A DNA stretch of 61,175 bases, taken from positions 1 to 61,175 of IMG/VR virus record IMGVR_UViG_3300037486_000366; one strand, 5' to 3'. Below are positions 165-42,354 of the stretch, in pieces (positions within the stretch are counted from its first letter, which is position 1; every line of letters starts with the position of its first letter). The stretch comes from a virus (lineage: Duplodnaviria > Caudoviricetes). A model generated the notes under the pieces. It had not been told where the DNA came from. It made no database searches and was given only the letters and a program-made list of their open reading frames with translations. Position numbers and translations under genes: made by a program.

Positions 165-446
165 CTAACTTTCGTTAGGCACTTTCTGATCAACTCCTGC
201 TTCGGCATTATATGCCCCTGTTTTAAATTCATTTCTCTCTTTTGTGGGGCGAGCAATATCAGCTAGAATATCGTCTCGCAGACCTCTTATTAACCCTTGA
301 AGTTCATCACGTCTTTCTCCCTTGGCTAATATGAGAGACTCTTTATACTCTTCTATATAACATTTCAATAGAGAAGTAAACAAAATTTTAACAGACCCGT
401 CAAGTAATTTAAACTGCTTTAATTTTTCTACCTTGTCGCTTCCCAT
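165..446 (-). CDS. Hypothetical head-region protein
   Basis: 93-aa ORF between the portal-adjacent gene and the scaffold, same strand. Confidence 0.7.
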   Translation of the reverse strand: MGSDKVEKLKQFKLLDGSVKILFTSLLKCYIEEYKESLILAKGERRDELQGLIRGLRDDILADIARPTKERNEFKTGAYNAEAGVDQKVPNES

Positions 447-850: not shown

Positions 851-860
851 TAGTACCTCC

Positions 861-2966: not shown

Positions 2967-2967
2967 A

Positions 2968-4314
2968 TTAATACCCCGCAACTCTATCAATTGCCCCAAC
3001 ACGTATACTACGTCGTCCAGGCTGTTGTGTTGTATTCGGATACCATTTCCGCATACCTAAGAACTCATGCTTTTGTGCAAGTGTTTGAAAAGCATCAGCC
3101 CCATGACGAGACCAGTCTTTTACTGGATGCTCTTTAAATGTCCCCGTCGCTTCATCAAATTCCTTACGATAATTTTCAAGACAGTCAACTAATCTAGAAC
3201 AGCGAACAGCATCTATCCAAACATGTGGAAAGAATGTTCTTGCCATTTCAATGGAGTCTTCCTTATATTTCACTTTCTTCGCTATATCAAACTTAATGCC
3301 TACACGACGGGCAGATTCTAACCGGGAAATTCCTGGTCCTTGTTCTTTAACTTTAATATCGTGAGGAGCAACGTGGCGACCATAGATGTAAGGTTTCTCA
3401 CGTAATACTTTAGCGTAGTGAGCGAACCCCTCTCCAGAATTTTCATAGTAATCCATGATATGGACTTCACGACCAATGTCCTGTGTAAACACAATCGACA
3501 TCGAATCATCCATTCCAAGGTCCCACCATGTGTCTACTGGGACTCCTGTGTGTATAGGTACCCCAGAAATCCTCCCCTCTTTTCTAGCATTCACTAACTG
3601 AAGCGAGAAGTAAGCACCAGGAATACCTGCTTCCCAGGAACAATAATATTCCTGTTGAATCATTTCCTCAGAAATAATACCTTCCTGTCTTATCTGATCT
3701 ATCTGACTCTCTTTAAATACTCCAGTATCAGTGATTGTAAGTAACTGAGCAAACCAGGAACCATTCGCCTTACTCATACGTTGAGCCATGTTATAGAGTC
3801 TGTAACCATGGTTTTTACCGCGGGGAGTATATACAAAGATCGCCCAGCCCCCGTTCTCTAACAGAATTGGGGAAATGAGTTCCCAGGCTTTAGGGTCTTG
3901 TAGAGAGTATTCTGAAAAGATACAACCGACTGGATTTGGCCCGACCAGTCTATTAATGTAGTCAGTACCAACTATCTGATAAATAGAGCCATTCACAAAC
4001 TCTACTTGCATATCGGTCTTATTTTTGTTTTTGATTATTTCAGGTGGAAAGTGGTCAACGAAGGGTCTTCCAGTTTTGGTCATACCTTGCCAGGCAATTT
4101 TCCTACCTTGATTATATGTAGGAAATAAGTGCCAGTATAACCCTACGCGTTCCATAGCTGCTGTGGCGCAAAAGTTAATGGCAGTAAGATCTTTTCCTGT
4201 ACGTCTGTGCCATACCCATACTGCACGTAGACATCCAGCTTCTAATGCACGCCATCCTGGAAATTGATAATGGCGAGGGGTGAAATCGTATGGAAGAGTT
4301 ATTTCAGCAATCAT
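2968..4314 (-). CDS. terL: Terminase large subunit
   Basis: Walker A HRRTGKD, Walker B CIFSEYS, YTPRG coupling motif, RNase H-like nuclease motifs WDLGMDDS and HGADAF. Confidence 0.95.
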   Translation of the reverse strand: MIAEITLPYDFTPRHYQFPGWRALEAGCLRAVWVWHRRTGKDLTAINFCATAAMERVGLYWHLFPTYNQGRKIAWQGMTKTGRPFVDHFPPEIIKNKNKTDMQVEFVNGSIYQIVGTDYINRLVGPNPVGCIFSEYSLQDPKAWELISPILLENGGWAIFVYTPRGKNHGYRLYNMAQRMSKANGSWFAQLLTITDTGVFKESQIDQIRQEGIISEEMIQQEYYCSWEAGIPGAYFSLQLVNARKEGRISGVPIHTGVPVDTWWDLGMDDSMSIVFTQDIGREVHIMDYYENSGEGFAHYAKVLREKPYIYGRHVAPHDIKVKEQGPGISRLESARRVGIKFDIAKKVKYKEDSIEMARTFFPHVWIDAVRCSRLVDCLENYRKEFDEATGTFKEHPVKDWSRHGADAFQTLAQKHEFLGMRKWYPNTTQQPGRRSIRVGAIDRVAGY

Positions 4315-18187: not shown

Positions 18188-20035
18188 ATGTGGTTACCAC
18201 CAACTGAATTACCTAGTCTTGAGTCAGCTAAAAAAATATCTATTGATATAGAAACCCGTGACCCTCATCTTAAAGAAAAGGGACCTGGTACCTTTCGCAA
18301 AGATGGCTATATCGTTGGTATTGCTGTTAATACAGGTGATGGGTATAAACAGTACTTTCCTGTTGGCCATGATAATGGGGGAAACTTAGATAAGCAGGTT
18401 GTTTATTCCTGGTTAAATGATGAGTTATCACGTGATTGGCAACCAAAAGTAGGGGCTCGTATATCTTATGATATGGAATGGTTATGGCAAGCAGGGGTAC
18501 AAATTAAAGGTCCTAAGTATGATGTAACAATTGCCGAAGCCCTATTAAATGAAAATAAGTTTAGGTATAACTTAGATAGTATTGCTGCAGAGCGTTTAGG
18601 TAAGCATAAATTTAATCAAGAATTAATTCAAGTCGCTTCTCGATACAAAATAAAACCAGACAAAGTTAAACAGCACATGAATATCTATACCCCACAGGAG
18701 GTTGCTCCTTATGCAATTGAAGACACAGAATTACCTCTTGAAATTTTTGCACAGCAGGAAATTGAACTTAAAGATCAGGAATTATGGCCTTTATTTATTC
18801 TGGAAACTAATCTCCTTGACTGTCTTCTTGCAATGCGTCTTCGTGGAGTTCCTATTGACGTCAGAAGAGCTGAGCAATTACAAGAAGAATTTATTCTTCG
18901 TGAAAAAACGATGCAAGAATATCTCAATTCTTTTGCCGGTTGCTCTATCCAAATCTGGGCTGCTGACTCGATTTCAAGAGCGTTTGATATTGCAAATATT
19001 CCATACCCTAGAACACCAAAGACTAATAAACCGTCTTTTACAAAGGACTGGCTTGAAAACCATCAATCAGAACTTGCCAGATTAATACTAGAACTTCGTC
19101 AAGTTCATAGATTACGAAACTCGTTTATTGAAAAAATGATTCTTGAACATAGTATCAATGGTCGTATTCATCCAGAGTTTCATCCTGTTAAACATGATGA
19201 AGGTGGAACTGTAAGTGGTAGGTTTAGCTCAAGTAATCCTAACCTTCAACAAGTTCCTATACGTCACCCAGTTTATGGGCCATTGATTCGTAGTTTATTT
19301 ATTCCTGAACATGGGGGTGAGTGGAACAAGAATGACTATAGTCAGCAAGAACCAAGGTTAACAGTTCACTATGCTTATTTAAGAGGTTATCCTGGTGCTC
19401 AAGAAGCTAGAGATCGTTATATCGCTGATCCAAATACCGATTATCATACGTTCACAGCAGAGCTTTGTAATTGTGAAAGACGTCTTGCAAAAGATATTAA
19501 CCTTGGTCTAGCATATGGTATGGGTATCGAGAAAATGGCAGCAAAATTAAATTTGCCTATTGATACTACAAAAACCTTGTACCAAATGTATCATAAAAAA
19601 ATTAGGTATATGAAACCACTTGCTATTGATTTAATGAATCTTGCTGCTACTAGAGGATACATTAAAACAATTTTAAATAGACGTAGACGCTTTGATTCAT
19701 GGGTTCCACCTGGGAAGCATGAAGAAAAAATAATTCCTTTGCCTTATGAAGAAGCAAAAGAAAAATGGGGACTTCCACTTAAACGTGCATTTACACATAA
19801 AGCACTAAATGGTTTGATACAAGGGTCTGCTGCTGATATGATTAAAAAAGCAATGTTAGATTGTTATCATGCAGGATACGTCCCACATTTAACTGTACAT
19901 GATGAGCTTGATCTTACAACTAATAGTCCAAAAGAAAGACTTATGATAAAAGATATTATGCTTAATGCATTAAAATTAGAAGTTCCTTTGAAAGTAGATT
20001 CCTTTGTTGCTAAGAATTGGGGGGAATGTAAATGA
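18188..20035 (+). CDS. polA: Family A DNA polymerase with 3'-5' exonuclease domain
   Basis: ExoI DIET, TVSGRFSSSNPNLQQ, motif A DYSQQEPR, motif B KDINLGLAYGMG, motif C VHDE; no 5' nuclease domain. Confidence 0.96.
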   Translation: MWLPPTELPSLESAKKISIDIETRDPHLKEKGPGTFRKDGYIVGIAVNTGDGYKQYFPVGHDNGGNLDKQVVYSWLNDELSRDWQPKVGARISYDMEWLWQAGVQIKGPKYDVTIAEALLNENKFRYNLDSIAAERLGKHKFNQELIQVASRYKIKPDKVKQHMNIYTPQEVAPYAIEDTELPLEIFAQQEIELKDQELWPLFILETNLLDCLLAMRLRGVPIDVRRAEQLQEEFILREKTMQEYLNSFAGCSIQIWAADSISRAFDIANIPYPRTPKTNKPSFTKDWLENHQSELARLILELRQVHRLRNSFIEKMILEHSINGRIHPEFHPVKHDEGGTVSGRFSSSNPNLQQVPIRHPVYGPLIRSLFIPEHGGEWNKNDYSQQEPRLTVHYAYLRGYPGAQEARDRYIADPNTDYHTFTAELCNCERRLAKDINLGLAYGMGIEKMAAKLNLPIDTTKTLYQMYHKKIRYMKPLAIDLMNLAATRGYIKTILNRRRRFDSWVPPGKHEEKIIPLPYEEAKEKWGLPLKRAFTHKALNGLIQGSAADMIKKAMLDCYHAGYVPHLTVHDELDLTTNSPKERLMIKDIMLNALKLEVPLKVDSFVAKNWGECK

Positions 20036-22635: not shown

Positions 22636-24150
22636 ATGTACGAGATTGCGACTGGATTTCTTGAGCTATTTAACGGTTATGATAAAGCTTATGGTATATA
22701 TAAAGTTGAACAAACAACTTCTTCTGGTAAAGCAAAGGGACAAGCTTCCACAATTGTTGCGGACGTAACACCTGAATTATGGGTTAAACATTTAACAGGT
22801 AAACAAGGTATAGGAATAATTCCTATCAAGAATGATAATACCTGTTACTTTGGGGCCATTGATATAGACATAATCGGTGTTAATTTCGTAGAAATAATAA
22901 AAAAGCTTAAGCGCCATAACTTTCCATTTGTCCCCTGTCGTTCTAAGTCAGGTGGATGTCACCTATTTATCTTTTTAGCTTCACCTGTATCTGCTAAAAT
23001 AATGCAAACAAAGCTTCGTGAAATGGCAGCTACCCTTGGTTATGGTAACTCTGAAATATTCCCAAAGCAAATAGAAGTTTTAACTGAACGTGGTGATCTG
23101 GGTCAGTGGATTAACATGCCTTATTTTAATGATCTACGTGGGTTACGATATGCAGTCAATGAAATAGGTGAAGCATTATCAATCGCGGATTTTCTTTCTT
23201 TAGCGTATAAATCAAGAATAACAGTAGATGAATTTGCCGCGATACAAGTAGAAATTATAAGTGATGAAATTACAGATGGTCCACCTTGTCTTCAATATCT
23301 TATAACACAAGGTTTTCAAGAAGGTATGCGTAACAACGGACTATTTAATATAGGTGTGTATGCAAGAAAAGCTTTTCCAGATGAATGGGAAAAGAAAACA
23401 GAGGAATATAACCAGATGTTTATGATTCCTGCCTTACTTTCCTCTGAAGTTCAGCAAGTATTAAAATCAGTAAAAAAGAAAACTTACATCTATACATGTA
23501 ACCAAGCACCAATAAATGCTTTTTGTAATAAGGCTTTATGCATCACTAGAAAATATGGTATTGGCCCTGATATGTCTTTACCTAATCTAAGCAACTTAAC
23601 AAAGTTTAATTCAAATCCACCTATTTGGTTTATTGACGTTGAAGGTGCTGGAAGAATGGAATTAACAACAGAAGATTTACAGACACAAGAAAGATTTCAA
23701 CGACGCTGTATAGAAGCCTTGAACATGATGCCCCCAATAATCAATAAAATGACGTGGCAACAAATTGTTCAGAGGTTATTAGATACAGTAGTATTAATTA
23801 TTGCTCCAGCTGATGCTTCACCTTCAGGACAATTAATAGAACACTTAGAAAGATTTTGTACTTCACGTGTACATGCAAGAGATAAGAATGAAATTTTACT
23901 AGGTAAACCATATTCAGAAAACACTCATCATTATTTTAGAATGTCTGATTTTATTTCTTATTTAGATCGTCATCATTTTAAAGAATTTAAGGTGCATAAA
24001 ATTTCTTCAATCATAAAAGAACAACTTAAAGCAGAGCATACTTTTTTAGTTCTTAAAGGGAAGGGGGTGAACGTTTGGAAGGTTCCTGAATTTCAGTTAC
24101 AAGATAGCGACCATGATGTTCCTGATATTAATGATAAGATACCCTTTTAA
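22636..24150 (+). CDS. Archaeo-eukaryotic-type primase with PriCT-like and Cys-rich domains
   Basis: GAIDID, SKSGGCH, EIFPKQ, INMPY; GPPC...GMRNN.LF; YTC...FCNKALC. Confidence 0.82.
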   Translation: MYEIATGFLELFNGYDKAYGIYKVEQTTSSGKAKGQASTIVADVTPELWVKHLTGKQGIGIIPIKNDNTCYFGAIDIDIIGVNFVEIIKKLKRHNFPFVPCRSKSGGCHLFIFLASPVSAKIMQTKLREMAATLGYGNSEIFPKQIEVLTERGDLGQWINMPYFNDLRGLRYAVNEIGEALSIADFLSLAYKSRITVDEFAAIQVEIISDEITDGPPCLQYLITQGFQEGMRNNGLFNIGVYARKAFPDEWEKKTEEYNQMFMIPALLSSEVQQVLKSVKKKTYIYTCNQAPINAFCNKALCITRKYGIGPDMSLPNLSNLTKFNSNPPIWFIDVEGAGRMELTTEDLQTQERFQRRCIEALNMMPPIINKMTWQQIVQRLLDTVVLIIAPADASPSGQLIEHLERFCTSRVHARDKNEILLGKPYSENTHHYFRMSDFISYLDRHHFKEFKVHKISSIIKEQLKAEHTFLVLKGKGVNVWKVPEFQLQDSDHDVPDINDKIPF

Positions 24151-24365: not shown

Positions 24366-24635
24366 ATGATGTCATCATTAGATAAAGGCTTCAATCCACT
24401 AGACAATATTAATGTAGAAGCATTAAAACCGATTATATGTGATTGTGGAAACGATTTATTTATACAAAGTTCTATCTTAAGAGATATACCAGTAATACAA
24501 TCACCAACAGGACAACGTACATTAGCTAATATTATAATGGGCTATATGTGTATAGCATGTCACAATGTAGTTACATTTACTGTGGATGCTAAAACAGATC
24601 AATATGTGTGGAAGAAAAAGAAAGAAGCCTCATGA
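24366..24635 (+). CDS. Small zinc-ribbon protein
   Basis: CDCGN...SPTGQ...CIACH. Confidence 0.7.
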   Translation: MMSSLDKGFNPLDNINVEALKPIICDCGNDLFIQSSILRDIPVIQSPTGQRTLANIIMGYMCIACHNVVTFTVDAKTDQYVWKKKKEAS

Positions 24636-26047
24636 ATATAATCTTAGGTCCACCAGGTACAGGAAAAACTACAAGGTTACTAAACCTAGTAGAAGATTAT
24701 CTTGCTAAAGGAGTTCTACCGAAACAAATAGGTTTCTTAGCGTTTACTCGTAAAGCTGCTGATGAAGCAAAAACAAGGGCTAAAGAAAAATTTGGGGTAA
24801 GTGACTCTGGTTTTATGTTCTTTCGTACTATTCATTCTCTAGTTTTTCGTCAACTTGGATTATCTAAGACGCAGATAATGCAGAAGGAACATTATAGAGA
24901 AATTGGAGAATTACTTGGACTAGAAATTAATTGTTATATTGATTTGGAAGAAGGAAACTTAGGTACTGGTACAGCAGAAGGAGACCAGTTAATATTTATT
25001 GATAATCTCGCAAGAGTAAAGATGATACCGTTACGTGATCTATATGATCAAACTACTTATGATGTTGATTGGCAACGTTTACTTCAGTTATCACAAACAA
25101 TTAAAAAATATAAGGAGGCGAAAGGATTAATTGATTTTACGGACATGTTAGAGCTGTTTCTTAAACATGGGGAAATTCCAAAGTTTGATGTTCTGTTTAT
25201 TGATGAAGCCCAAGACTTGAGTATACTACAATGGAAGGTAATCGAGGCAATCATGAAAAATACACCGGAGGTTTACATTTGTGGAGATGATGATCAATCT
25301 ATTTTTCGTTGGGCTGGGGCTGCTACTGACTATTTCATTACTCTTTTGGGGGATATTACGGTGCTTGAGCACTCATGGAGAGTACCACGGAATATACAGC
25401 AAGTTGCTCATGAAATCATTAATCAGGTTAAGTTTCGTCGACCTAAGACGTGGCGACCTCGTTCCGATGGCGGGGAGGTTTTTTATTGGAATGATTTGGA
25501 TTCTATACCTATTGACAGTGGGCATTGGTTATTACTTGGTAGGAACGCTTATTTACTTAAAAGATTGGAAGAGCATTGTATGCGCAATGGTTATTCTTTT
25601 GAAGGTGCTAGGTTTTCCCCCCTCAAGTCTCCTGCATTAAAAGCCATTAAATCGTGGGAAACACTACGTGCTAGTGGAAGTATAACTACTGAAGAAGAAA
25701 AGAGAATGTTTCAATATCGTACTTCTAAAGTTATTCCGAAACATATGGACATATGGCATGTTGAACTAGATAAAATATCTCCTTATGAACGTGAGTATTT
25801 TATTGCAGCAAGACGACGTGGAGAAACCTTGTTAAAGATTCCTCGTATAAAAATTAGTACGATACATGGGGCAAAGGGTGGAGAAGCTCAGAACGTATTA
25901 CTCTTAACAGACATGGCATATAGAACCTACCAGGAAATGCAGCAAAATTATGATGACGAAGCAAGGGTCTTTTATGTAGGAGTAACAAGGGCTAAAGAGA
26001 CTTTACACATTATGGAACCGAGTACGAATTTATATTTCCAATTATAG
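24632..26047 (+). CDS. UvrD/Rep-like superfamily 1 helicase
   Basis: GPPGTGKT, AFTRKAA, IDEAQD, GDDDQSIF, STIHGAKGGE, YVGVTRA. Confidence 0.94.
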   Translation: MNIILGPPGTGKTTRLLNLVEDYLAKGVLPKQIGFLAFTRKAADEAKTRAKEKFGVSDSGFMFFRTIHSLVFRQLGLSKTQIMQKEHYREIGELLGLEINCYIDLEEGNLGTGTAEGDQLIFIDNLARVKMIPLRDLYDQTTYDVDWQRLLQLSQTIKKYKEAKGLIDFTDMLELFLKHGEIPKFDVLFIDEAQDLSILQWKVIEAIMKNTPEVYICGDDDQSIFRWAGAATDYFITLLGDITVLEHSWRVPRNIQQVAHEIINQVKFRRPKTWRPRSDGGEVFYWNDLDSIPIDSGHWLLLGRNAYLLKRLEEHCMRNGYSFEGARFSPLKSPALKAIKSWETLRASGSITTEEEKRMFQYRTSKVIPKHMDIWHVELDKISPYEREYFIAARRRGETLLKIPRIKISTIHGAKGGEAQNVLLLTDMAYRTYQEMQQNYDDEARVFYVGVTRAKETLHIMEPSTNLYFQL

Positions 26048-26147: not shown

Positions 26148-27629
26148 ATGGGGACATTACAATATCCTTTCAAGTTAAAGCCATTTGAACACCAGTTAAA
26201 AGTGTGGAATATTAGTTGTGATTTACAAAGTTATGCTTTATTTATGGACATGGGAACTGGTAAAAGTAAAGTTATAATTGATAGCGCCGCCTTTTTATAC
26301 GACAAAGGAAAGATAGATGGTTTACTTGTTCTAGCTCCAAAGGGAGTATATCGAACTTGGTATGATATAGATCCTGATACCAATGACCCTATCGGTGAGA
26401 TACCTACTCACTTACCTACACATATCAAGTATTATGCTACATGGTGGTCAGCTTATAAAACGAAAGAAAAACTTCTTTCCTATAAACCATTTTGGGAAGT
26501 GTCTGAGGACTTACATATTCTTTTAATGAACATAGAAGCCTTGTCAAATAAAGGTGAAGCAAATGTACTTGCCCGTAGGTTCTTATCAAGTCATCGTTGC
26601 ATGATGGTTATTGATGAATCGACTACAATAAAAAATTTAAAAGCACAACGTACTATTTCAAGTATTAATCTTGGTAGATTTGCTATTGCAAAACGTATAG
26701 CTACAGGTATGCCAACAACAAGGTCACCAATGGATTTATATGCTCAATGCTATTTTTTAGACCCACACCTACTTGGTTTCTCAAGTTATTATGCATTTAG
26801 AGCACGGTATGCTATCATGCAAAAAATGCACCTTGGAAAAAGATCATTTGATAAGGTTGTAGGTTATCAAAGACTTGATGAGTTAACTGAAAAACTTAAG
26901 GAGTTTAGTTTCAGAATAACAAAAGAAGAGTGCCTTGATTTACCTCCCAAGCTTTATCAATATCGAGAAGTGGAACTTTCACATGAGCAAAGCCTTGTCT
27001 ATAAGCAAATGAAACAATTAGCGATGGCTCAATTAGATGCTGCAACAGTGGTAACAGCTACTATGGTAATGGTTAAGATACAGAAACTCCATGAAATTAC
27101 TTGTGGGTTTTTAAAAGATCCTGTAACAGGAAAAATACGCCCATTAAAAAATGATAGACTAGAAAACTTAATGGAAATACTCGATGAAACATCTGGTAAA
27201 ATTATTATCTGGGCAACATATACTTATAATATAGAAGAGATATATACTGCAATTGCTAAGGAATATGGTACTGAAACAGTAATGCATTTTTATGGTAGTA
27301 CAAGTGATGATGATAGAGAACTAGCAAAACGTAGATTTCAGAATCCAACTGATTCGTTAAGATTTCTTGTAGCAAACCCATCAACAGGTCGGTTCGGGAT
27401 GACTCTTACTGAAGCAAAAACATTTATTTATTATAGTAATAATCATGATTTAGAGCATCGCGTTCAGTCAGAGGACAGAGCACATAGAATCGGGCAAACT
27501 AAAAATCTATTAATTATTGACCTTATAACTCGTGGTACGGTTGATGAAAAAATTATCAAGAACCTACGGGAAAAGAAAACCATTGCGGATAAGATAATGG
27601 GTGATGGGTATAGGGAGTGGTTAAAATGA
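26148..27629 (+). CDS. SNF2-family (SF2) helicase
   Basis: MDMGTGKS, IDES, TG.P, QSEDRAHRIGQ. Confidence 0.94.
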   Translation: MGTLQYPFKLKPFEHQLKVWNISCDLQSYALFMDMGTGKSKVIIDSAAFLYDKGKIDGLLVLAPKGVYRTWYDIDPDTNDPIGEIPTHLPTHIKYYATWWSAYKTKEKLLSYKPFWEVSEDLHILLMNIEALSNKGEANVLARRFLSSHRCMMVIDESTTIKNLKAQRTISSINLGRFAIAKRIATGMPTTRSPMDLYAQCYFLDPHLLGFSSYYAFRARYAIMQKMHLGKRSFDKVVGYQRLDELTEKLKEFSFRITKEECLDLPPKLYQYREVELSHEQSLVYKQMKQLAMAQLDAATVVTATMVMVKIQKLHEITCGFLKDPVTGKIRPLKNDRLENLMEILDETSGKIIIWATYTYNIEEIYTAIAKEYGTETVMHFYGSTSDDDRELAKRRFQNPTDSLRFLVANPSTGRFGMTLTEAKTFIYYSNNHDLEHRVQSEDRAHRIGQTKNLLIIDLITRGTVDEKIIKNLREKKTIADKIMGDGYREWLK

Positions 27630-27889
27630 TACTAGATCAATTTGGTAGACCTGTAAGAAATAAGTGGGATGACTGGGGATCTATTGCCCTGGAGAGAGCT
27701 GCAATTGCAATAACTAATATTTGTAAGGAAAAAACTTTTCCAGGTCAAAGTCTTATTTTAGATCAGCATGGGAAACCAATCACATCTAAGAAAGGTGAAA
27801 TGATTAAGTTTAGAAGATACACTCCTTTTAAAATTGACCAAGATACTTTTAGGCGAGAGTATATGGGTGATTGGAACGTTGACGAATAA
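27626..27889 (+). CDS. 87-aa protein with capsid-like and terminase-like peptide segments
   Basis: GGGAG RBS, ATGA overlap with SNF2 stop; see findings. Confidence 0.65.
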   Translation: MILDQFGRPVRNKWDDWGSIALERAAIAITNICKEKTFPGQSLILDQHGKPITSKKGEMIKFRRYTPFKIDQDTFRREYMGDWNVDE

Positions 27890-28046
27890 TTATCTTTAGC
27901 CTTTTTCTTCTAAATAAACATCGAAAAATATTATGATACCGGCTCCCACAGTAATCACATTTTAAATTTATGCTAAGCTTTGACAACTTTACCGGTCTCG
28001 GCCGTGTACCCCTCAACTTTGCCATCCGAACCAGCTCCAAGACCAT
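27849..28046 (-). CDS. Possible small basic protein with CCHC zinc knuckle
   Basis: CDYCGSRYHNIFRC matches C-x2-C-x4-H-x4-C; RBS unclear; 3' end overlaps an opposite-strand gene. Confidence 0.3.
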   Translation of the reverse strand: MVLELVRMAKLRGTRPRPVKLSKLSINLKCDYCGSRYHNIFRCLFRRKRLKIIIRQRSNHPYTLA

Positions 28047-28050
28047 AAGT

Positions 28051-28082
28051 GTGGGGCAAGGAACCGAAGTCCCTTACCCCAC
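28051..28082 (-). terminator. UUCG-tetraloop hairpin at the end of the late arm
   Basis: Minus strand GUGGGGUAAGGGAC-UUCG-GUUCCUUGCCCCAC, 14-bp stem whose two wobble pairs form only on the minus strand. Confidence 0.75.
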
Positions 28083-28122
28083 CGCACCAAGACAAGGAGC
28101 CAAGGCACGAGGCACGTATGTA

Positions 28123-28404
28123 CTACATGTTAGGTTTCCATTTAGGAGCAGGAGGTTTTTTAATAAATACCGGCTTAACTGTTAAATCTTTTGCTGGCAT
28201 TATAAATGTACAAGTTTTACTTGTATTCCCTTCCTGACATATAACACCTTCCCAACGAATAAACCTACTGTCTGGGCACGCTTTCACAGTAAGAACTTCT
28301 TTAGTCCCTTCAAGTAATTTCGCTGAACATTGTGCATATGCTAACGTGGTAAGGGACAGGGCCCAAATAACTGCAACCACCAGCATAATAACTTTCTTAA
28401 CCAT
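28123..28404 (-). CDS. Secreted small protein, InlB B-repeat-like domain
   Basis: Signal peptide MVKKVIMLVVAVIWALSLTTLAYA; LTV.A...SRF..WEG..C......C.F.M...TV...F. Confidence 0.6.
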   Translation of the reverse strand: MVKKVIMLVVAVIWALSLTTLAYAQCSAKLLEGTKEVLTVKACPDSRFIRWEGVICQEGNTSKTCTFIMPAKDLTVKPVFIKKPPAPKWKPNM

Positions 28405-28405
28405 T

Positions 28406-28744
28406 CTATTTTTTCCATTTTGGCGCAGGTGGAGCAGTGAAATCGAAAAAATTTGTGAGTACATCCACGTCACTAGTATTTCCTTCTTTGTCGATAGATG
28501 CAACACCAAGTACCCAGTCCCCTTCAACAGTAATAGGCACTTGAGCAGGAATATTTACTCCATACAAAAGTACTCCCTGCTCATACACAATATCAACAGA
28601 CGGTACTTCTGGTAGAGCATTTAAGTCCGCATCAATTATAGGTCCTGGAGCAGGAGCATAATACACTCTGATATTTTCAACATCTGCTAATGCGGGAACA
28701 TCTGGAAGAACGAAAAACCTTGTCTTGCTTACTATTTTAGCCAT
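28406..28744 (-). CDS. Small fibronectin-III-like beta-sandwich protein
   Basis: RVYY...GDW.LGV.SID.EGN.SD...FDFTAP.AP pattern; GGAGG RBS. Confidence 0.6.
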   Translation of the reverse strand: MAKIVSKTRFFVLPDVPALADVENIRVYYAPAPGPIIDADLNALPEVPSVDIVYEQGVLLYGVNIPAQVPITVEGDWVLGVASIDKEGNTSDVDVLTNFFDFTAPPAPKWKK

Positions 28745-28746
28745 TT

Positions 28747-33460: not shown

Positions 33461-33700
33461 TTATATATAAGACAACGTTAAGTAATCAGACCAACGCTGA
33501 TTAAACCTATCATCACCATCAGGATATTTTATAATTAAGCTTGATGTTTCATCGAGACGTTTAATTTGCCAAACATATTCAGAATCAAGTGCTCCTGGTT
33601 TAGCTTTACCAATATATGTAATTGGGGCAACTTCAACCATTCTTAATGTATATTCTTGACTTATTATCCTAACTACTTCATGTCCAGCAAAAATTTCCAT
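33461..33700 (-). CDS. Small conserved phage protein
   Basis: TYIGKA.PG....VWQIKR...Y.DG...F...W. Confidence 0.65.
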   Translation of the reverse strand: MEIFAGHEVVRIISQEYTLRMVEVAPITYIGKAKPGALDSEYVWQIKRLDETSSLIIKYPDGDDRFNQRWSDYLTLSYI

Positions 33701-36700
33701 TATTCAAGTAACCTTACACGTTCTGCTTTATTAGGAACATATAGTGCTTTAGCTTGACGTTTAAGTGATTCTTTAGTAATCACTGGAACTTGTCCACCCA
33801 GATTATATCTTACCACAAGATTATTATATTGTACAACTTTATCCATCGTCTTCTGTAACATTTTAGAATCATTTGACATTAATGAATTACGATACTGCTC
33901 ATAAATGTCATCACGCATTTGAGTAAAGTTTTCCCGTTCCATGAGGGCTTCTGATCGTCTCTCTACCATAGTAGCTTGCTGAGCAGATCTAAATCCTAGA
34001 ACCCGTGCCCCAGTCTCAAATGCACTTGCTTTATAAGGCATTCCTTGATTATTAAATACTGGTGTACCTTTGGTTGTAGTTACACCAGAAAGTTCTCTAT
34101 ATGCCTTAAATAAATTACCAATACCAGTTGGTAAAGTCTTTTCCGCAGCTCTACCATATTCTCCTAACTTAGTATAATGTAAAGCATCGCCCACATCTTT
34201 CACTAGTCCACCACCTACACCAAGTAACTCATACATATTTCGTGGTAGTCCAGCATTAATGTTTAATGATCCAGACACATCTAATCCAAGGGCTCCAATG
34301 AGTCCGTGTCTCAAGATAGTTTCTGATGATTTCCCCATGGATTTACGTGTCTTGTCCCAGAACCATTTTTCAGCATCAACCTTTATTCCTAGCAATCTTA
34401 ACAGGGCATTAAAGATACCTACCCAAATATCTTTAAGTGGGGCTACAGCCATACCTGCTAAGAAAATAGGAGACATTAAACCATATAAGAAGCCTTTAAC
34501 ATTCTTCTTTTTGAAACCAACATCATAAAGCATCTGTAAATAATTATGGGGAAACTTCTGGAATGTATACAGCATCTGAAATAATTTAGCTGCTGGATTT
34601 TTCCCTAACGCATACGAAGGTAATGTTGCCTTACCATACACAGCATGTGCTTTATTAGAAGCATCATATGCTTTTGCTACAGCTTCATCATGAGTAAGGT
34701 CAGGATTATTTTTCTTTGCTAATCTATATGCTGCAAGTATTGTTGAACCTCTAATCCATTGTTCTGATTTCTTAAACCCAAACAAGGCTAAACCAAGGGA
34801 CTGGTTCCAAATACGGCCATGGGTTCTTTGTAACGTGCCCATAGCGTCTTGCATATATTGAGGCATATCATAGCCTTTTTCATGTATCTCATCAACAAGT
34901 TTCTGTTCATTAGCATTAGGTAATTCTTGTCCACGCATAACACCGATGTAGTCTTTACTTGAACGAGTAATTTCTGCTCCAATACTTGCTAAACTACCTT
35001 TACCGCCCATAACATATTGATGAATAGCAGTAGGAACAGTGGTTCCAAGGGCAAGCACATTGACAAATAATGTTCGGGGGTTAAACCCGAGATATTTAAA
35101 AGAAGCTACAGATTTAGCATAACCAATTAATCTATCAGTATTATCTGCATTACGTAATTGTTCTTCAACATATTTAGTAGCTACTTCATAAGCACGTCTT
35201 TCTTTTTGTTCGTCAATTCCACCGACTTTCTTTTTACTACCCTCTTCGTCAGTAACATACTTACCAGTAATTGTGCTGAACATATTTTTAGCTGCTTCAG
35301 CTTTAGCTAGTCCAGCAGAAATATTTCCCACATACCTAACAAACCGTTCGCCTGGATCTACGATATAACCTCGGACTATTTTATCCTTACGTCGACGAAT
35401 CATCGACCCTCTAAATCCTCGAGCTTTAATTATATCTGCAATATTATCAAGCAGTTCATTTTCAAACTTCATCCTTAGTTCAGGAGCTTCAAGTTTAGTT
35501 CCTTTCATTGCTAGATTAATTGCTTGATGTATACTAACAAGGCGTAAGTTACCATAAACATCTTCATGAAGTCGTTCACGTTCTTTTATCGGTTCAATAG
35601 TAAAACCTTGACGGGTAAGTGATGCAGCTAAACGTTCTGCAGCTAACCTATTCGATTTATGATAACGAACTTCTTCTTCTTCACCACGTTTACCTACTAC
35701 TTCCCATTCACCTACTTCACGTAAACGAGGAGCATAGGAACCTTTTAATTGTCCCATTGTGTGAAGAACTTCTTTAAGATTAACAGTAGTTATTTTTCCT
35801 TCTTCATCGTATGTTTGAAACTGAGGATATTGTGGTTTTTTATTTTTTGCTTTAGCTTCATCTTCTACCTCAGTTACTGTTTTAACTAAGGGCTCCATAA
35901 GTAAATCTAAAGCCTTGTCATATGCTACTCTATGTGCCTTATATAACTCAAGTACATCTTGTGGAATATTTTGATTCTCAAGATATTGCAAATATGACAT
36001 ATCAGGATTATCTACTTTCTCTCTCCATTCACCTGTATCACCTTCATCAACTATACGAGAAAATAGCTTATAATCATCTGATGTTTCCCCTCTAACTATT
36101 TGCCACCGTGTAAGACCTTTATTTCTAAGAGCAGTTGTTCGCTGAGAAACAGTCTCATCAGAATTTTCAATTTCATCAAGGGTATGAAATAATTCATAGT
36201 AACGATCATGCCGTTTAATGGCAAGGTCAACAAGTTTACGTAGTACTGGATGACTGTACCATTCAGGAGAACGTAAAAGTCTTTCCATAAATGTCAAGGC
36301 TGGAAGATTTCGTGGACGCTGAGCTGAAATTGTTTTTAATAAAGCTTTCGCCTCTTCTCCCCAGAAGTTTTTAAGAACTGCTGGATCAAGCTCATTGAGA
36401 TTTGGGTCTAGCGTACCTTGCTTAGAAACCTTAGCATACTTAATTGGTTGTTTTGCTTTCTCTACTTGAACATTTTGCTTACGATACATTTCCTGAAATT
36501 CTGTGTTTGAGAAAGATCTCGAAGACCCGTCTGTAAACTCAATAACGAAAGTGTTAGTTGCCTCATTCTTGAAAACTTTATCTACTTTACGTAAACCTAT
36601 GATCTTATCAACACGTAACCTATTAGGTTGGATGAAGCCTTTCTTTTCGTTATATTCTCCAGCTCTAGGATTAGGTATCATTACTTTACCATAATCTTTT

Positions 36701-39700
36701 ACTATATAACCTTTCATCTTTTTAGAAGTAGATTCTAGTTCACGCAAACCTTCTTTAGAAACTCTAGAAAATTTCCCAGGTTTATCATATCTAGCCGCAG
36801 TAAAACGTTTACTAAAGTTACCTGTATAAAATGAAGGGGGTACTTTTTCTCCTTCATTAAGTCTAACTACGTCATCAATATAATTAGCTAAGTTTACCTG
36901 ATCTTCTGAAGATATTGTTGCTTTATCTTTTCCAAGAACTGGGACATTTTCAAGTTTAAATGATGGAACCAGCTCTAATAGTTCTGCTTTATCTGCCTCA
37001 TTACTAAACACATCATCAAAGAATTTTTGTTCAGTTGGCGTAAGATATGTTCTAATTTCCTTTTTAGTTGGCTCTAATTCTTCTAACATAGACTTTATTT
37101 CATTCTTATACAAATTAATTGTTTCTATGTCAGGAATATCTTTACTCTTCTCAACCACAATCTTTTTTTCAAGAAGGTCAATTACACTATTGGTTCTTAA
37201 TAAATGATTTTCTTCTGCAGATCTTTTTCCTGGGATAATGTTTGCTACTCTATCTTTAAAATTATCATAAAGAACCTTATCTTCTTTAGAGATAAAATCT
37301 ATTACATTAGTTTTTTCAGTATAAAGATTTTGTAAATCTTTAAAAGATAAAATTTCTTCCTGCCCATCAATAATAAATTTAAGGTCAGTTACTTTTGTAG
37401 CAGGGTCTATCTTAACTTCATTATCTTGAACCCCTTCACTTTCAATGGCTTTAGTGGGAAAAATGATAGCCACAGAAATTTTATCATTAGCCCCATAAGC
37501 AACTATCGGGGAAATATTACTGATTAATTGTGCAGATATTCCAGGGTAGCCTTCAAAATCTTCCCCAACAAATAACTCATTATTCTCTACAATTGAACGA
37601 AGTTCATCGATCGTAGTTATCCTTGTAGCTGTATTAGGTTTAATTGTTCCTACATAAAGTTTATTTTTTAAATTGTCTTTTAAAGCAATCTTCGTACCAA
37701 CTGATTTTTCTATTGAAATAGGAGTTGCTTTATTAAAAGCTTCCTTAATTTCTTCCATTGTAACTATTACTTTAGGATATGTAACGATTGCCTTACGCCC
37801 TACTAAATTATCGAGAGCTTCAAATTCATGACTAGGTTTTTCTGCAAGAAAACGTTGGCTTCGAGCTAACAAGGCTTTGATGTCACCATCCGTATAAGTT
37901 TTTACTATTCCCCAATCACGAAACTTATTGCGAACAAAGGCTATAATCTTTTCCCATAATGTTTCAGATAATTGATTTTTAGGGTCTTGTGCTTGAAATG
38001 CTAAAAATTCTTCAGCAGCTAATAATTGACCACGATTACCACTAGTGCCTGATGAATCACCTTCAATAGACTCATCTATTTCGTATTCTTTCACAACTGT
38101 CTTCATTAAAGGTGTATCTTTATAACTACTATATATTTGGCGCAAAATAGGTTTAAATTCTTCTACACCTAGCATTTCCCACATGCCATGATGAACTAAT
38201 GCTTCATGTAAAAGAGTGCCAAGTGCTTCATCTAAATCTGCAATCTGATCTGCAAAAAGATGAATAGCAATATACCCATCATTATTTGGCCAATATACTC
38301 CAGGAATAAATTGCGTCTCAAGGTCAGCGTTTAAAAGAATATCAACAGGGACGTCTGGATGATAAATAGAATCATAGATCGTGACTATAGGTAAACCTGG
38401 ATGTTCTTCAACAAACTTGTCAATATGGGTCGCAATATCTTTTGCTTTTAAGTTCCCTGCTTTTTCATGTGTTCTTGGTTGTTTGACCTTAGCAAATTTT
38501 TTAGGAATAGCAGTTAATTTATCTTTTTGAAGAATTTCAATATTATTTTCATCAAAATCTATTCCTGTACCATGTTTACCAACTTTAGCTGCCTTAACTC
38601 CAACAAGAGTAGTTGCTACCTTATTAAAGTAATCTATTAAACCATCAATTTGTCGATCAAACTGACTCTTTTCTTCTGAAGTTGCAAAATGAGTGTTTAA
38701 TAAGCCATCATCAAATGATGCTGATAATTGGCCTAGGTAATCAGACAAATGAACCAGGTTGACTTTACTTTCGTCACCAAGATGCCATCGATTATTAATC
38801 ATAGTAGACAATGCGTTTAATAAAGAGGGTAAATCTCCCGTTGTCTTGGGGACTAACGTATTTGTCTTTTTATTAAGGGTTAATACTCGAGTTGAAAGGT
38901 CTTTGTTTTCTTGAGCCGTTTGAAACAAGGGATTTAAGGCTATAAGCTTATGCTTCTTTGCAACAGGTTTCTCTTTTGCAATCTCAGCACGAAGAGCCAT
39001 TTCTTCACGTTTCTCTTCTTCAATTCTATCATCAACCATTTCCTGAATTTCTTTTTCACTTAATTCAGAAAAGTCAGTAGAGAACATATCATATAAATCA
39101 GCTCGACGTTCTTTTTCTTCTTGTTCAGTCATTAAAGGAACTTCAAGCGGGGCAATTTCTTCTTCAGGTTCTTCGACTTTTTCTTCTGTTATTTTTGCCA
39201 TTGCACGTTGATCTGCTGCTTCCTCACGTTCCTCTTCAGTCATCGTGCCTTTTTCTTTCCAAGTACCTTCAGTAGTCTGTTTCCATTGTTTAACAAGGGT
39301 TTTATGCTCAGCAACTTCTTCAGTTGGAACAGCTTCACCTTGCTGTAGTCTTGCTAGAACGTTACGATAACGGGCTTTCTTTTTTAGTGTCTTCTTTACT
39401 TCTGGTAAAGTTTTAATAGAAGGTTCACCTACATAAACATAAGATAAAGTAACCCCACCTTTAATATCTTTTTCAATTTGAGATATATTAGAAAAATCAG
39501 GTTTATTTTTTTCACCAACAAACTCAAATGTATGTTGTGAATATGTTTTATTTTTTAAGACACTTGAAATAGCTTCAGGTAAAGTGTTATAGGTTTCTTG
39601 CCTAATTAACTCTTGATTAGGTTCTATACTTTCTTGTTTATGTTCAACTATATACTTTCCATCCTCCTCTGAAATATCTGCATAAGCTTTATCAAAGGTA

Positions 39701-42354
39701 GTAGAACGTTCAGAAAAATCACTTGCATTGACAAGTTGAGTTTTAAGGTTTTTAATCTCAGTCATTACTTCTGGTAAAGTTTTGCCAGTCTCTGTGGTAC
39801 TAGTACCTGTATCGACTTTACCTTGCTCGATAACCCCTGTAACCACTGCTCCAGTGACTGGCTTGGGAGGACGTCCAGGTTTTCGCTTAGGTCCTGGTTC
39901 AACTGCAGGTCTTTCTTTCTTAGGTCTTCCAACCTTTTTCTTAATCGCTTCTTCAAGGATTGCATCTCCTTTCGCTTCAACCTTTGTGCCATTTTCAAGT
40001 TCAACTTTTACAGTAACATCTTTTAAATCTTCTTTTGCTATTCTATCAAGAATACGTTTAGAAGAAACTATATCTGAAGCAATAATTATTGTGGACGTTT
40101 TTTCTTGAGCTTGCTTAGCTTTTCTTTTAAGCTCTCCTTTTTTGGTTGCTCGTTTTTCTTCTTTAGAAAGGGGTGTTTCGCGTTGTTCTTGAACATTTCC
40201 ACTTGCTGTAATCTTTCCTTCGCCTGTTCCTGTGACAGGTCCGGTTTTGACAGGTTTTTCCCCTTGCTGGACTTTACTTGATAGCCTTGCGATGTTTGTA
40301 CGATCACTTGTAATCTCCTTTCGTTTCGCAATCCACTGTTCCTTGCCTTCTTCTGTATGACCTATTTTTGTAGGTTCATACATATTAAAAATACCAGGCA
40401 TCTTCTGCTCAAGTTTACGTAAAGTAAGTAAAACACTCCCTTTTGAAGTAAAAGCATTTCCCTTAGCTGTCCTAATTTCCGCAGGCACTTCACCAGTAGC
40501 AGTTGGGGTAATTTTCTTTAGCCGTTGTGTTTCTAATCCTCGCTGAATAAGATCAGAAAAAACTTTAGGAACAGCAATCCAGGCTTTAGTATTTAATCTG
40601 AAAGGTACTAGTTCTTTTTCTTTATTAGCTTCTTTTATTGCTTTCTTTGTAACTGCTTCTGAAACAAAGGGTATTTCTTCTCCAGCTTTGTTTTGACTTG
40701 TTAATGATACTTTACGAATTAATTCTGGTAAAGACATTAACGTTCCAATATTCTTTTCATGAGTAAAAGAGTCGGGAGTATGCGCTTCAGAAATAGGCCG
40801 CATGACTGGGTTGCCCTGCTCATCTACGATATGAGAAGATTGAACCATCATAGGAGAAGGAACAATAGGTCCCCGCGCCCCCATAATGGTCTGAGCTAAT
40901 TGAGTCGCACGATTTTCATCAAAACCACGTTTAATGAAATCATCTTTGAAAAAATTAAACAGTTCATACCCAATAATTCGTCTACCAGTTTTTTCATTTT
41001 CTGGGTGAAGTTCTTCTTGCTGAGTAACTTCTTTTGGTGTTTCAATTCCACGTTCCTCAAACTTTTTGACATCTTCAGAAAGTTGTTGTTCAAGGAAACG
41101 TTCCTTAGTCATCTCTTGAAATGTTCTTAATGACTCAAGGTTCTTGTTTAACTCCATTGGTTCTTGATTAACTATCTTATATGCCGCATACTCTTGCCAT
41201 TTAGAAGCAAGATCAGTATCATTAGTTCCATCTAGTTTCTTAAGTTCATTAAAGACTATTTCTGCAGCACGATGTCTATCAGATACATCAGCCTCAGCAT
41301 CTTCTAAAACCTTTGTTACTTGCCCCCGCATCTTTGCCCCACGACCATGACCTACTCCAGCAAATAATAGTGAGGCAAAAAATGTAGGACCTATTGCTTG
41401 TAAAGCCTGTTCTTCAGGAGAAGTCTCTTGAGGTAAACCTGCTTCTTCACGAAACCTTCCTTCAAGATAGCTCTGAGCCATTTCAGTTGGAATTTCAACA
41501 GCTGATAATTTTCCGACTGTAGCCGCATAATCTTTTACACCAGCCGTAGTTCCACGTTCAAGTAACTGTTTAACTGTTTTTGTTGCTGCACGACCGACAC
41601 CTAACCTATCAAGAAACGACCCAATAACAAGGTCACCTGTAAATTCAAGGCCAGCTTCCTGAATAGCAGAAGCAGCTGCCCATGGTTTCCATTCATTATC
41701 TGTTATTGCAAATTGAGGATTTTTCTGATTAAACTTATAGACGTCTTCTGCGAATTGATCATATTCTTGAAGACCAAATGCAATACCACCACCAAGTGCT
41801 CCGGTAGCAATACCTCCTACTCGTCTACCTAATTCAGCTGCTTGTGGAGTTTTACCTATTGCCATACCTAGTGCAGCACCTAACGCTTGACCTGGTTCTG
41901 AGGCAATCAGAATAGGCATAATAGACTGCACAAAACTACGAGAACCCTCAAATACAGAGGTACGAAAAACATTTCCTGCTGACCATGGATCACCTGTTAA
42001 TGTTGGTTGTTTAAAAACACTTGGGAGAGCATTTTCTATCTCTGGTTTTTTCTCAATAAACCAAGTAGCAACAACATCTTTCAGTCCCTGATCTTCATCT
42101 TTAACATTACCGAGACGAATATCGCGTGCTAACATTTCAATTGAACTCAATAAACCAGCAGCAAGACCAGCTGGTAAATCACCGATGACCCCCATCCAAC
42201 TGCTTCGTACAGGAGTAGGTGGTTCTGGTGGATTTATGCTAGCAAGATCTTGTTGTACTTCAGTTAAGCCTTGGTAAATATTTGTAGGTTCAGCACCAGG
42301 AGTACCTACAGAACCAGCCATGTCACGAGCAAATTGTTCAAGGTCAAACGCCAT
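33700..42354 (-). CDS. Giant internal virion / polyvalent protein (2884 aa)
   Basis: Last of the ejected-protein genes; Gly/Ala-rich TM-like N-terminus, GRP AT-hook-like motifs, LLHEALVHHG...AEEFLA metallopeptidase-like motif, helical C-terminus. Confidence 0.8.
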   Translation of the reverse strand: MAFDLEQFARDMAGSVGTPGAEPTNIYQGLTEVQQDLASINPPEPPTPVRSSWMGVIGDLPAGLAAGLLSSIEMLARDIRLGNVKDEDQGLKDVVATWFIEKKPEIENALPSVFKQPTLTGDPWSAGNVFRTSVFEGSRSFVQSIMPILIASEPGQALGAALGMAIGKTPQAAELGRRVGGIATGALGGGIAFGLQEYDQFAEDVYKFNQKNPQFAITDNEWKPWAAASAIQEAGLEFTGDLVIGSFLDRLGVGRAATKTVKQLLERGTTAGVKDYAATVGKLSAVEIPTEMAQSYLEGRFREEAGLPQETSPEEQALQAIGPTFFASLLFAGVGHGRGAKMRGQVTKVLEDAEADVSDRHRAAEIVFNELKKLDGTNDTDLASKWQEYAAYKIVNQEPMELNKNLESLRTFQEMTKERFLEQQLSEDVKKFEERGIETPKEVTQQEELHPENEKTGRRIIGYELFNFFKDDFIKRGFDENRATQLAQTIMGARGPIVPSPMMVQSSHIVDEQGNPVMRPISEAHTPDSFTHEKNIGTLMSLPELIRKVSLTSQNKAGEEIPFVSEAVTKKAIKEANKEKELVPFRLNTKAWIAVPKVFSDLIQRGLETQRLKKITPTATGEVPAEIRTAKGNAFTSKGSVLLTLRKLEQKMPGIFNMYEPTKIGHTEEGKEQWIAKRKEITSDRTNIARLSSKVQQGEKPVKTGPVTGTGEGKITASGNVQEQRETPLSKEEKRATKKGELKRKAKQAQEKTSTIIIASDIVSSKRILDRIAKEDLKDVTVKVELENGTKVEAKGDAILEEAIKKKVGRPKKERPAVEPGPKRKPGRPPKPVTGAVVTGVIEQGKVDTGTSTTETGKTLPEVMTEIKNLKTQLVNASDFSERSTTFDKAYADISEEDGKYIVEHKQESIEPNQELIRQETYNTLPEAISSVLKNKTYSQHTFEFVGEKNKPDFSNISQIEKDIKGGVTLSYVYVGEPSIKTLPEVKKTLKKKARYRNVLARLQQGEAVPTEEVAEHKTLVKQWKQTTEGTWKEKGTMTEEEREEAADQRAMAKITEEKVEEPEEEIAPLEVPLMTEQEEKERRADLYDMFSTDFSELSEKEIQEMVDDRIEEEKREEMALRAEIAKEKPVAKKHKLIALNPLFQTAQENKDLSTRVLTLNKKTNTLVPKTTGDLPSLLNALSTMINNRWHLGDESKVNLVHLSDYLGQLSASFDDGLLNTHFATSEEKSQFDRQIDGLIDYFNKVATTLVGVKAAKVGKHGTGIDFDENNIEILQKDKLTAIPKKFAKVKQPRTHEKAGNLKAKDIATHIDKFVEEHPGLPIVTIYDSIYHPDVPVDILLNADLETQFIPGVYWPNNDGYIAIHLFADQIADLDEALGTLLHEALVHHGMWEMLGVEEFKPILRQIYSSYKDTPLMKTVVKEYEIDESIEGDSSGTSGNRGQLLAAEEFLAFQAQDPKNQLSETLWEKIIAFVRNKFRDWGIVKTYTDGDIKALLARSQRFLAEKPSHEFEALDNLVGRKAIVTYPKVIVTMEEIKEAFNKATPISIEKSVGTKIALKDNLKNKLYVGTIKPNTATRITTIDELRSIVENNELFVGEDFEGYPGISAQLISNISPIVAYGANDKISVAIIFPTKAIESEGVQDNEVKIDPATKVTDLKFIIDGQEEILSFKDLQNLYTEKTNVIDFISKEDKVLYDNFKDRVANIIPGKRSAEENHLLRTNSVIDLLEKKIVVEKSKDIPDIETINLYKNEIKSMLEELEPTKKEIRTYLTPTEQKFFDDVFSNEADKAELLELVPSFKLENVPVLGKDKATISSEDQVNLANYIDDVVRLNEGEKVPPSFYTGNFSKRFTAARYDKPGKFSRVSKEGLRELESTSKKMKGYIVKDYGKVMIPNPRAGEYNEKKGFIQPNRLRVDKIIGLRKVDKVFKNEATNTFVIEFTDGSSRSFSNTEFQEMYRKQNVQVEKAKQPIKYAKVSKQGTLDPNLNELDPAVLKNFWGEEAKALLKTISAQRPRNLPALTFMERLLRSPEWYSHPVLRKLVDLAIKRHDRYYELFHTLDEIENSDETVSQRTTALRNKGLTRWQIVRGETSDDYKLFSRIVDEGDTGEWREKVDNPDMSYLQYLENQNIPQDVLELYKAHRVAYDKALDLLMEPLVKTVTEVEDEAKAKNKKPQYPQFQTYDEEGKITTVNLKEVLHTMGQLKGSYAPRLREVGEWEVVGKRGEEEEVRYHKSNRLAAERLAASLTRQGFTIEPIKERERLHEDVYGNLRLVSIHQAINLAMKGTKLEAPELRMKFENELLDNIADIIKARGFRGSMIRRRKDKIVRGYIVDPGERFVRYVGNISAGLAKAEAAKNMFSTITGKYVTDEEGSKKKVGGIDEQKERRAYEVATKYVEEQLRNADNTDRLIGYAKSVASFKYLGFNPRTLFVNVLALGTTVPTAIHQYVMGGKGSLASIGAEITRSSKDYIGVMRGQELPNANEQKLVDEIHEKGYDMPQYMQDAMGTLQRTHGRIWNQSLGLALFGFKKSEQWIRGSTILAAYRLAKKNNPDLTHDEAVAKAYDASNKAHAVYGKATLPSYALGKNPAAKLFQMLYTFQKFPHNYLQMLYDVGFKKKNVKGFLYGLMSPIFLAGMAVAPLKDIWVGIFNALLRLLGIKVDAEKWFWDKTRKSMGKSSETILRHGLIGALGLDVSGSLNINAGLPRNMYELLGVGGGLVKDVGDALHYTKLGEYGRAAEKTLPTGIGNLFKAYRELSGVTTTKGTPVFNNQGMPYKASAFETGARVLGFRSAQQATMVERRSEALMERENFTQMRDDIYEQYRNSLMSNDSKMLQKTMDKVVQYNNLVVRYNLGGQVPVITKESLKRQAKALYVPNKAERVRLLE

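Follow-up and report, generated by a model that had tools for sequence, protein, structure and literature searches.

Few triggers of bacterial immunity are as common as capsid proteins, and the N-terminal arm (N-arm) of the capsid protein is a hub of assembly contacts. Newly made major capsid protein (MCP) binds and activates CapRel (CapRel(SJ46)), and capsid proteins have also been linked to Lit/Gol, PifA and Pycsar; the activator of Lit is Gol, a peptide of T4 gp23, and here a short MCP peptide serves as the immune ligand (PMC9712102). For staphylococcal Thoeris, a 1:1 complex of ThsB1 with the capsid protein as a monomer has been proposed, and the E-loop substitution W84K escapes Thoeris immunity and prevents activation (PMC12578639). 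In 80alpha, the C-terminus of the scaffold docks at the N-arm helix, and this region of the capsid protein is also where CpmB of SaPI1 sits (PMC5644958). Here, we describe a small gene at 27626..27889 (+ strand) of the virus record IMGVR_UViG_3300037486_000366. The window that was analysed is the entire record, which has 61,175 bp and a G+C content of about 35%. The gene encodes a protein of 87 amino acids (P0001), the core of which appears to be related to the beginning of the MCP.

The N-arm of the MCPs of PF25209 (Phage_capsid_4)/PHROG 1357 is the closest relative that we could detect; the resemblance extends over about 53 columns and includes a helix, a linker and the element T-I-K-F-R-R-Y-N. 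Compared with these MCPs, the small protein consists of the N-arm segment only, with the linker motif present once more at its N-terminus, and in two of its three contexts its gene lies apart from the head genes. T4 gp24 is a vertex paralogue of gp23, has the full-length HK97 fold and builds pentamers. The small protein would resemble gp24 in being a second phage gene derived from the MCP; unlike gp24, it is a paralogue of the size of a 55-residue fragment and cannot form the fold.

The nearest known concept is the competition of CpmB at the N-arm/scaffold interface, where a small protein acts in a like manner from the scaffold side (PMC5644958). CpmB imitates the scaffold, whereas the protein of the window resembles the capsid side, as far as its sequence tells, and the two proteins have no sequence relation. 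For CapRel, Lit and ThsB1, the capsid segment is the trigger, and the passages considered from the two reports on these systems (PMC9712102 and PMC12578639) describe no free-standing antagonist derived from a capsid protein. In open-access papers and preprints, we came across neither a stand-alone paralogue of the capsid N-arm nor a decoy made from a capsid fragment. The gene would be a case of a small phage protein that mimics the interface of a structural protein, with a predicted function.

The small gene and its family

A gene of 87 codons for amino acids had been called at this place in the first-pass annotation of the record, and the reading frame was upheld, with an ATG at 27626 and a stop codon ending at 27889. 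The start codon is preceded, at a distance of 8 nt, by a Shine-Dalgarno-like AGGGAG (27612..27617, + strand), and it shares the sequence ATGA (27626-27629) with the TGA stop codon of the upstream gene, which encodes an SNF2-type DNA helicase (26148..27629, + strand; phrog_62, E 3.3e-103). This overlap suggests that translation of the small gene is coupled to that of the helicase gene. The homologue in G001, a related virus record of 58 kb that carries terminal repeats, has 65 amino acids and an identical ATGA overlap, in that case with an upstream DNA polymerase gene. Seven of the nine family members described below begin with M-[ILF]-[LY]-[DEN] at this position, and the other two have one or two extra residues. 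Given this conserved start position, the ATG at 27626 is favoured over a GTG at 27617. The open reading frame (ORF) is a genuine gene with a start that is probably translationally coupled, and it belongs to a rare family of accessory phage genes.

A word-indexed homology search with P0001 alone returned P0001 itself and nothing else. Two small relatives, P0006 (78 amino acids, E 1.3e-10) and P0008 (89 amino acids, E 5.2e-6), came from an exhaustive HMMER search. Two further proteins from that search, P0005 (1137 amino acids) and P0007 (1676 amino acids), are long tandem-repeat proteins and were dropped by eye as spurious. A profile search then defined a family of nine proteins of 65-98 amino acids (P0001, P0006 and P0008 to P0014), with E-values from 5.5e-35 to 4.2e-6 on the scale of 5.8 billion sequences. 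All nine members come from uncultured viral or metagenomic contigs; P0008 is on a 65-kb contig and P0012 on a 12.7-kb contig.

The other members are 20-42% identical to P0001. The features of the family are a start of the form M-phi-phi-[DEN], a central helix, the motif F-P...phi-phi-D-x-x-G-x-P and the element G-x-T-I-K-F-R-R-Y-N, and P0001 conforms to this pattern. G49, I60 and R64 are invariant in the alignment of the nine members. The tails that follow FRRY are unrelated or absent in the other eight. A tenth, partial homologue, encoded at a locus named L164, ends directly after FRRY, and the homologous DNA of L164 and of another locus, L161, shows an amino-acid identity of about 37%. P0001 matched no Pfam family at E up to 10. 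Against PHROGs, it matched just two unrelated 44-position families (E 0.36-0.38) and did not match phrog_1357. A PDB sequence search and the ESM Atlas returned nothing usable for P0001.

Resemblance of the family core to the N-terminus of the capsid protein

The MCP of the window is encoded at 59165..60166 (- strand) and matches phrog_1357 (E 2.6e-53) and PF25209. Its closest counterparts among cultured phages, those of Pseudoalteromonas phage vB_Pun_Y3, Pseudomonas phage Rollin, Xanthomonas phage DES1 and Stenotrophomonas phage StenR_269, are just 37-44% identical to it.

The first-pass annotation had aligned a segment of P0001 with this MCP, and that alignment withstood the comparison with shuffled controls at the level of the family, also when P0001 itself was removed; the resemblance proved stronger than the annotation had indicated. 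With single sequences, the Smith-Waterman score of P0001 against the MCP was 50, the mean for shuffled sequences was 27.0 (standard deviation 4.3), and 0 of 1000 shuffles reached 50. The MCP was the best non-self match among 212 six-frame ORFs of the window. We then compared families. The MCP homologues comprised 58 distinct sequences from 80 virus contigs, and their N-termini are strongly conserved, with a helix, the linker L-V-phi-E-K-F-G-Q-x-K-P-L-P and, after it, S-K-T-I-x-F-R-R-Y-N. Comparison of the small family with the MCP family by hhalign gave a probability of 91.6%, a P value of 8e-7 and a score of 45.4 over 53 columns, in a register that places residues 13-71 of P0001 on residues 5-59 of the MCP (59990..60154, - strand); an MCP alignment of 21 rows gave the same result. 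The reversed target scored 15.8. The scores of 200 column-shuffled queries had a mean of 12.4, a standard deviation of 2.3 and a maximum of 25.9, so that none of the 200 reached the real score. With P0001 left out of the family, the score was 45.0.

Searches with the hidden Markov model (HMM) of the family pointed to the same region. Among 322 six-frame ORFs of the window, the MCP was the sole non-self match below E 1, with an E-value of 0.0077, or 0.0068 when P0001 was omitted from the model; the next match had an E-value of 1.4 and 1.8, respectively. The family HMM also matched 57 of the 58 MCP homologues at E <=0.045, with up to 21.7 bits. A profile search for longer proteins, made without any target in mind, returned one of 7999 scored candidates, and this was a PF25209 protein of 325 amino acids (E 1.8 on the 5.8-billion-sequence scale, which alone is not significant). 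Six-frame searches of nine related virus records gave exactly one match each in eight of them, in frames of 329-366 amino acids; by arithmetic from the coordinates, these matches fall at about residues 4-58 of the MCP. When P0001 was compared by tblastn with 50,697 phage records, the top match lay under an annotated MCP (E 0.6). The sequence LERA, which the first-pass annotation had noted upstream in both proteins, is out of register in the Smith-Waterman and in the hhalign alignment, and we consider it coincidental for that reason.

Collectively, these comparisons show that the core of the family (about residues 13-71 of P0001) and the first ~55 residues of the HK97-fold MCP of this lineage are homologous. 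The shared core would correspond to the N-arm helix, the linker phi-phi-[DE]-x-x-G-x-x-P and, with T-I-K-F-R-R-Y, the first strand of the E-loop. P0001 is not itself a member of the HK97-fold MCPs by the profiles that recognise the MCP of the window, as it matches neither PF25209 nor phrog_1357, and the body of the HK97 fold (spine helix, P-domain and A-domain) is absent from the 87 amino acids.

The layout of P0001 follows from this alignment. Residues 2-10, ILDQFGRPV (27629..27655, + strand), form the extra copy of the linker motif; it has no counterpart at the N-terminus of the MCP, and the hhalign match begins after it, at residue 13. Residues 13-33 (27662..27724, + strand) are a predicted helix and are aligned with the region of the N-arm helix of the MCP (about residues 5-25). 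Residues 44-52, ILDQHGKPI (27755..27781, + strand), are the second copy of the motif and are aligned with VIEKFGQAKP of the MCP. Residues 57-65, GEMIKFRRY (27794..27820, + strand), are the most conserved element of the family and are aligned with SKTMNFRRY, the predicted first strand of the E-loop hairpin of the MCP. Residues 66-87 (27821..27886, + strand) are a tail private to P0001, outside the conserved family core. The double occurrence of ILDQ[FH]G[RK]P in P0001, as read in the first-pass annotation, was borne out: the self-match of the 9-mer scored 36, and 0 of 300 shuffles did as well. A repeat at the same position was significant in P0006 (0 of 300 shuffles) and P0009 (1 of 300), and not in the other six members.

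Predicted structure

The AlphaFold2 (AF2) model of P0001 has a helix at residues 13-33, a second helix at residues 72-79 in the private tail and an extended chain elsewhere, with a predicted local distance difference test (pLDDT) score of 67. The helix at 13-33 is the best-modelled part (block pLDDT up to 85). The small protein is thus predicted to be non-globular, with one long helix flanked by extended chain. A Foldseek search with the model gave no match at E <=0.001 in BFVD or PDB; the best E-values were 1.4 (BFVD) and 2.0 (PDB).

For the MCP, an AF2 model based on 21 close homologues was poor (pLDDT 42.7). This low-confidence model has a helix at residues 11-24, hairpin strands at 45-53 and 76-84 and a long helix at 103-125, which is the order of the HK97 fold. 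PDB sequence and profile matches to the MCP cover about residues 83-326 only and do not extend to the N-arm. Given the poor model and the position of the PDB matches, the role of residues 5-59 was assigned from general knowledge of the HK97 fold; we take them to be the N-arm helix, the linker and the first strand of the E-loop. A prediction of the complex of P0001 with the full-length MCP scored 0.00 in two runs made without controls, and this score speaks neither for nor against binding.

Distribution and genomic contexts

The gene was present in one of 14 related virus records, and in one of the seven that are at least 90% complete. The 13 related records that do not have it encode MCPs with 61-81% identity. 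Likewise, the gene was absent from the flanks, up to 4 kb on each side, of 80 loci with a helicase of 46-53% identity. Pattern scans of IMG/VR found G001 and L164 only. Scans of metagenome contigs (with the alignment A3 and with P0008) gave no confirmed locus, scans of viral contigs with P0012 and P0011 gave nothing, and no family member was found in 185,579 species genomes or in the cultured-phage records. A match in G003, another relative (E 0.006), was rejected as spurious; it lies in an open frame of 4592 amino acids, at a stretch read as a helicase-like motif (G-T-P-V-T-N).

Three genomic contexts were seen. In the window, the gene follows the SNF2-type helicase gene and closes a + strand block of about 5.0-27.9 kb, which includes genes for a DNA polymerase (18188..20035), a primase (22636..24150) and two helicases, the other one at 24608..26047 (all + strand). 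The position as the last gene of the replication operon, as stated in the first-pass annotation, was confirmed, since the + strand block ends here and the genes from 28123 onward are on the - strand. In G001, the homologue follows the DNA polymerase gene, and a convergent gene comes immediately after the helicase gene of that record. The L164 homologue lies 5 nt upstream of a gene for an intein-like TerL, after which comes the portal gene. The view that the protein is made before the structural proteins agrees with the window and G001, where the gene belongs to the replication module, and probably does not carry over to L164. Collectively, the patchy presence and the three contexts lead to the conclusion that the gene is dispensable and mobile.

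The TerL gene of L164 (133..2430, + strand) encodes 765 amino acids, compared with 448 in the window. By eye, it contains an intein-like insertion inside the Walker A region (G-P-F-G-C ... H-N-S-G-K-S), and within the TerL insertion an ORF of 250 amino acids lies on the opposite strand (263..1015, - strand).

Possible functions of the small protein

We tentatively favour the reading that the small protein is a competitive mimic of the MCP N-arm in a conflict between phage and host or between phage and parasite. In this scheme, the free small protein would imitate the N-arm of unassembled MCP and would occupy a partner that normally recognises the N-arm. The partner could be a host immune sensor of newly made capsid protein, in which case the small protein would be a decoy made before or alongside the MCP; a protein of a capsid-hijacking satellite, or an assembly protein of a competing phage, would be a less likely partner. 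We prefer a partner in such a conflict over the phage's own assembly machinery, given that the gene is dispensable (13 of the 14 related records do without it) and changes its position. A more specific proposal, which we regard as doubtful for the present, is that the protein acts as a "trigger mimic", a non-assembling copy of the N-arm, made ahead of the MCP or at the same time, by which a factor that recognises capsid protein would be saturated but not activated. The target could be a host sensor of unassembled MCP or a satellite protein that redirects the capsid. If it were true, this mimic would represent a class of counter-defence in which a piece of the sensed protein itself is turned against the sensing.

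Several points weigh against the competitive mimic. The family is very rare, with nine proteins across 5.8 billion clusters, and owing to this rarity no host or defence system can be named. The single-sequence match to the MCP is marginal when it is corrected for the 212 ORFs, as shuffles then reach a score of at least 50 in 10 of 200 cases. The assignment of the N-arm helix (residues 11-24) and of the E-loop strand (residues 45-53) is drawn from a poor model and from the topology of the HK97 fold. A fragment that carries the epitope of a sensor might activate the sensor and not block it, and we found no non-activating capsid-fragment decoy in open-access papers or preprints. The partner and the effect are both predicted. 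Finally, the L164 homologue adjoins TerL and portal and is probably expressed with the head genes, a placement that fits a role in assembly as well as it fits a decoy.

This last point leads to the alternative that the protein modulates the phage's own head assembly, which we consider rather unlikely. A free copy of the N-arm would then bind the scaffold, the portal or the MCP, and could tune the nucleation or timing of assembly or stop premature or wrong assembly of the MCP. The N-arm helix of 80alpha, as the docking place of the C-terminal helix of the scaffold (PMC5644958), offers a precedent for such binding, in one of the three contexts the gene immediately precedes TerL and portal within a block of head genes, and the element best conserved in the family is likewise the best conserved one in the N-terminal part of the MCPs. 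However, 13 of the 14 related records lack the gene, so assembly does not need the small protein, and a small protein from a replication operon would be unlikely to match the stoichiometry of scaffold and MCP. The likely scaffolding protein of the window is encoded directly upstream of the MCP gene, at 60184..61131 (- strand; 315 amino acids, with a match to phrog_13678 only). The Smith-Waterman score of P0001 against the ORF of this candidate (60187..61173) was 41, and the null mean for the best of all ORFs was 42.3; with a similarity that falls within the null, the small protein is not CpmB-like either. Near its N-terminus, the scaffold candidate has K-P-I-E-E about seven times in tandem, and near its C-terminus it has a run of E-E-K-K repeats.

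We judge it unlikely that the gene arose long ago by partial duplication of an MCP gene at its 5' end and now has an unrelated or marginal use, so that the resemblance reflects ancestry and not imitation. Such an origin would suit a rare and patchy family whose members are divergent and have variable tails, and in which no function-bearing domain is detectable. Against it, what has been kept across the nine members is what is conserved in the MCP, namely the helix, the glycine and proline of the linker and TIKFRRYN, which points to selection on a capsid-like surface. In addition, intact frames of similar length with coupled starts are found in different genomes.

That the resemblance to the MCP arose by chance, or that there is no gene at all, is very improbable. 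The marginal corrected single-sequence score and the small size of the family would allow for it, but the profile controls, the analysis with P0001 left out and the target-free searches that returned MCPs all speak against it, as do homologues with E-values of 1e-10 to 4e-6 on a database-wide scale.

If the competitive mimic is considered further, a dispensable and conserved copy of the N-arm offers both a concrete reagent and a hypothesis. It could reveal the surface by which sensors, scaffolds or satellites recognise the unassembled capsid protein, and it could show whether phages blunt such recognition with a fragment of the trigger.

Resemblance to terminase and portal

The first-pass annotation had read the gene as a fusion of capsid and terminase pieces that also carries a portal-like motif. 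The TerL gene of the window is at 2968..4314 and the portal gene at 861..3002 (PF23899), both on the - strand. The segment said to resemble TerL, IDQDTFRREYMGDWN, lies within the private tail (27833-27877, + strand; residues 70-84) and is exactly the best local alignment of P0001 with TerL. Its Smith-Waterman score, 28, is lower than the average of the shuffles (30.1), of which 677 in 1000 were as good or better. The shuffle result, together with the privacy of the tail, rules out a terminase fragment. The comparison with the portal protein scored 37 against a shuffle mean of 31.6, and 156 of 1000 shuffles reached that score. A relaxed form of the ILDQ motif, which the first-pass annotation had linked to the N-termini of some portal proteins, occurs three times in the 322 six-frame ORFs of the window; two of these occurrences are in P0001 and the third is in the MCP, with none in the portal protein. 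At E up to 10, no terminase or portal family of Pfam was found in P0001.

The capsid part of the proposed fusion is therefore upheld by controls and homologues, and the terminase tail and the portal motif are at the level of chance. We interpret the TerL-like tail and the portal motif as chance resemblances, and the small protein appears to be a capsid-arm paralogue of single origin and not a chimera of capsid, terminase and portal. A multi-epitope chimera that occupies several sensors (Avs, CapRel) can be set aside as extremely improbable, given that its capsid-like part alone is supported, the TerL and portal matches are at shuffle level, the tail is unconserved and the motif is absent from the portal protein.

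The region downstream of the small gene

The block of - strand genes, which carries the lysis, tail and head genes, starts at 28123 and is convergent with the + strand block. The sign of the GC skew flips at about 28 kb. The last gene of the - block, which faces the small gene, encodes a protein of 134 amino acids (28123..28527, - strand) with a borderline match to PF18998, the divergent InlB B-repeat domain (23.3 bits, with a cut-off of 23.6). Further into this block, an ORF of 2884 amino acids (33700..42354, - strand) had no Pfam match at E <=0.01.

A simple terminator scan found no terminator-like site near the small gene, no Rfam family reached its gathering score there, and the whole window contains no tRNA genes. 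Between the convergent blocks, there is a patch of 54-58% G+C (27990..28120). On the - strand, a hairpin at 28051..28082 has a perfect 14-bp stem and a UUCG loop. The 151-nt fold of this region had a z-score of -2.54, with 2 of 200 shuffles folding equally well, and the + strand fold of the same patch was not significant. The hairpin is located just 3' of the - strand gene that ends at 28123, without a U-tract, and may be a terminator or an RNA-stabilising hairpin.

A blastn search of 26000-29200 against phage records gave no match. The segment 26800-28400 matched contigs in four DNA runs labelled sediment metagenome, from four studies, two of which may be its source, with no differences where it was covered.

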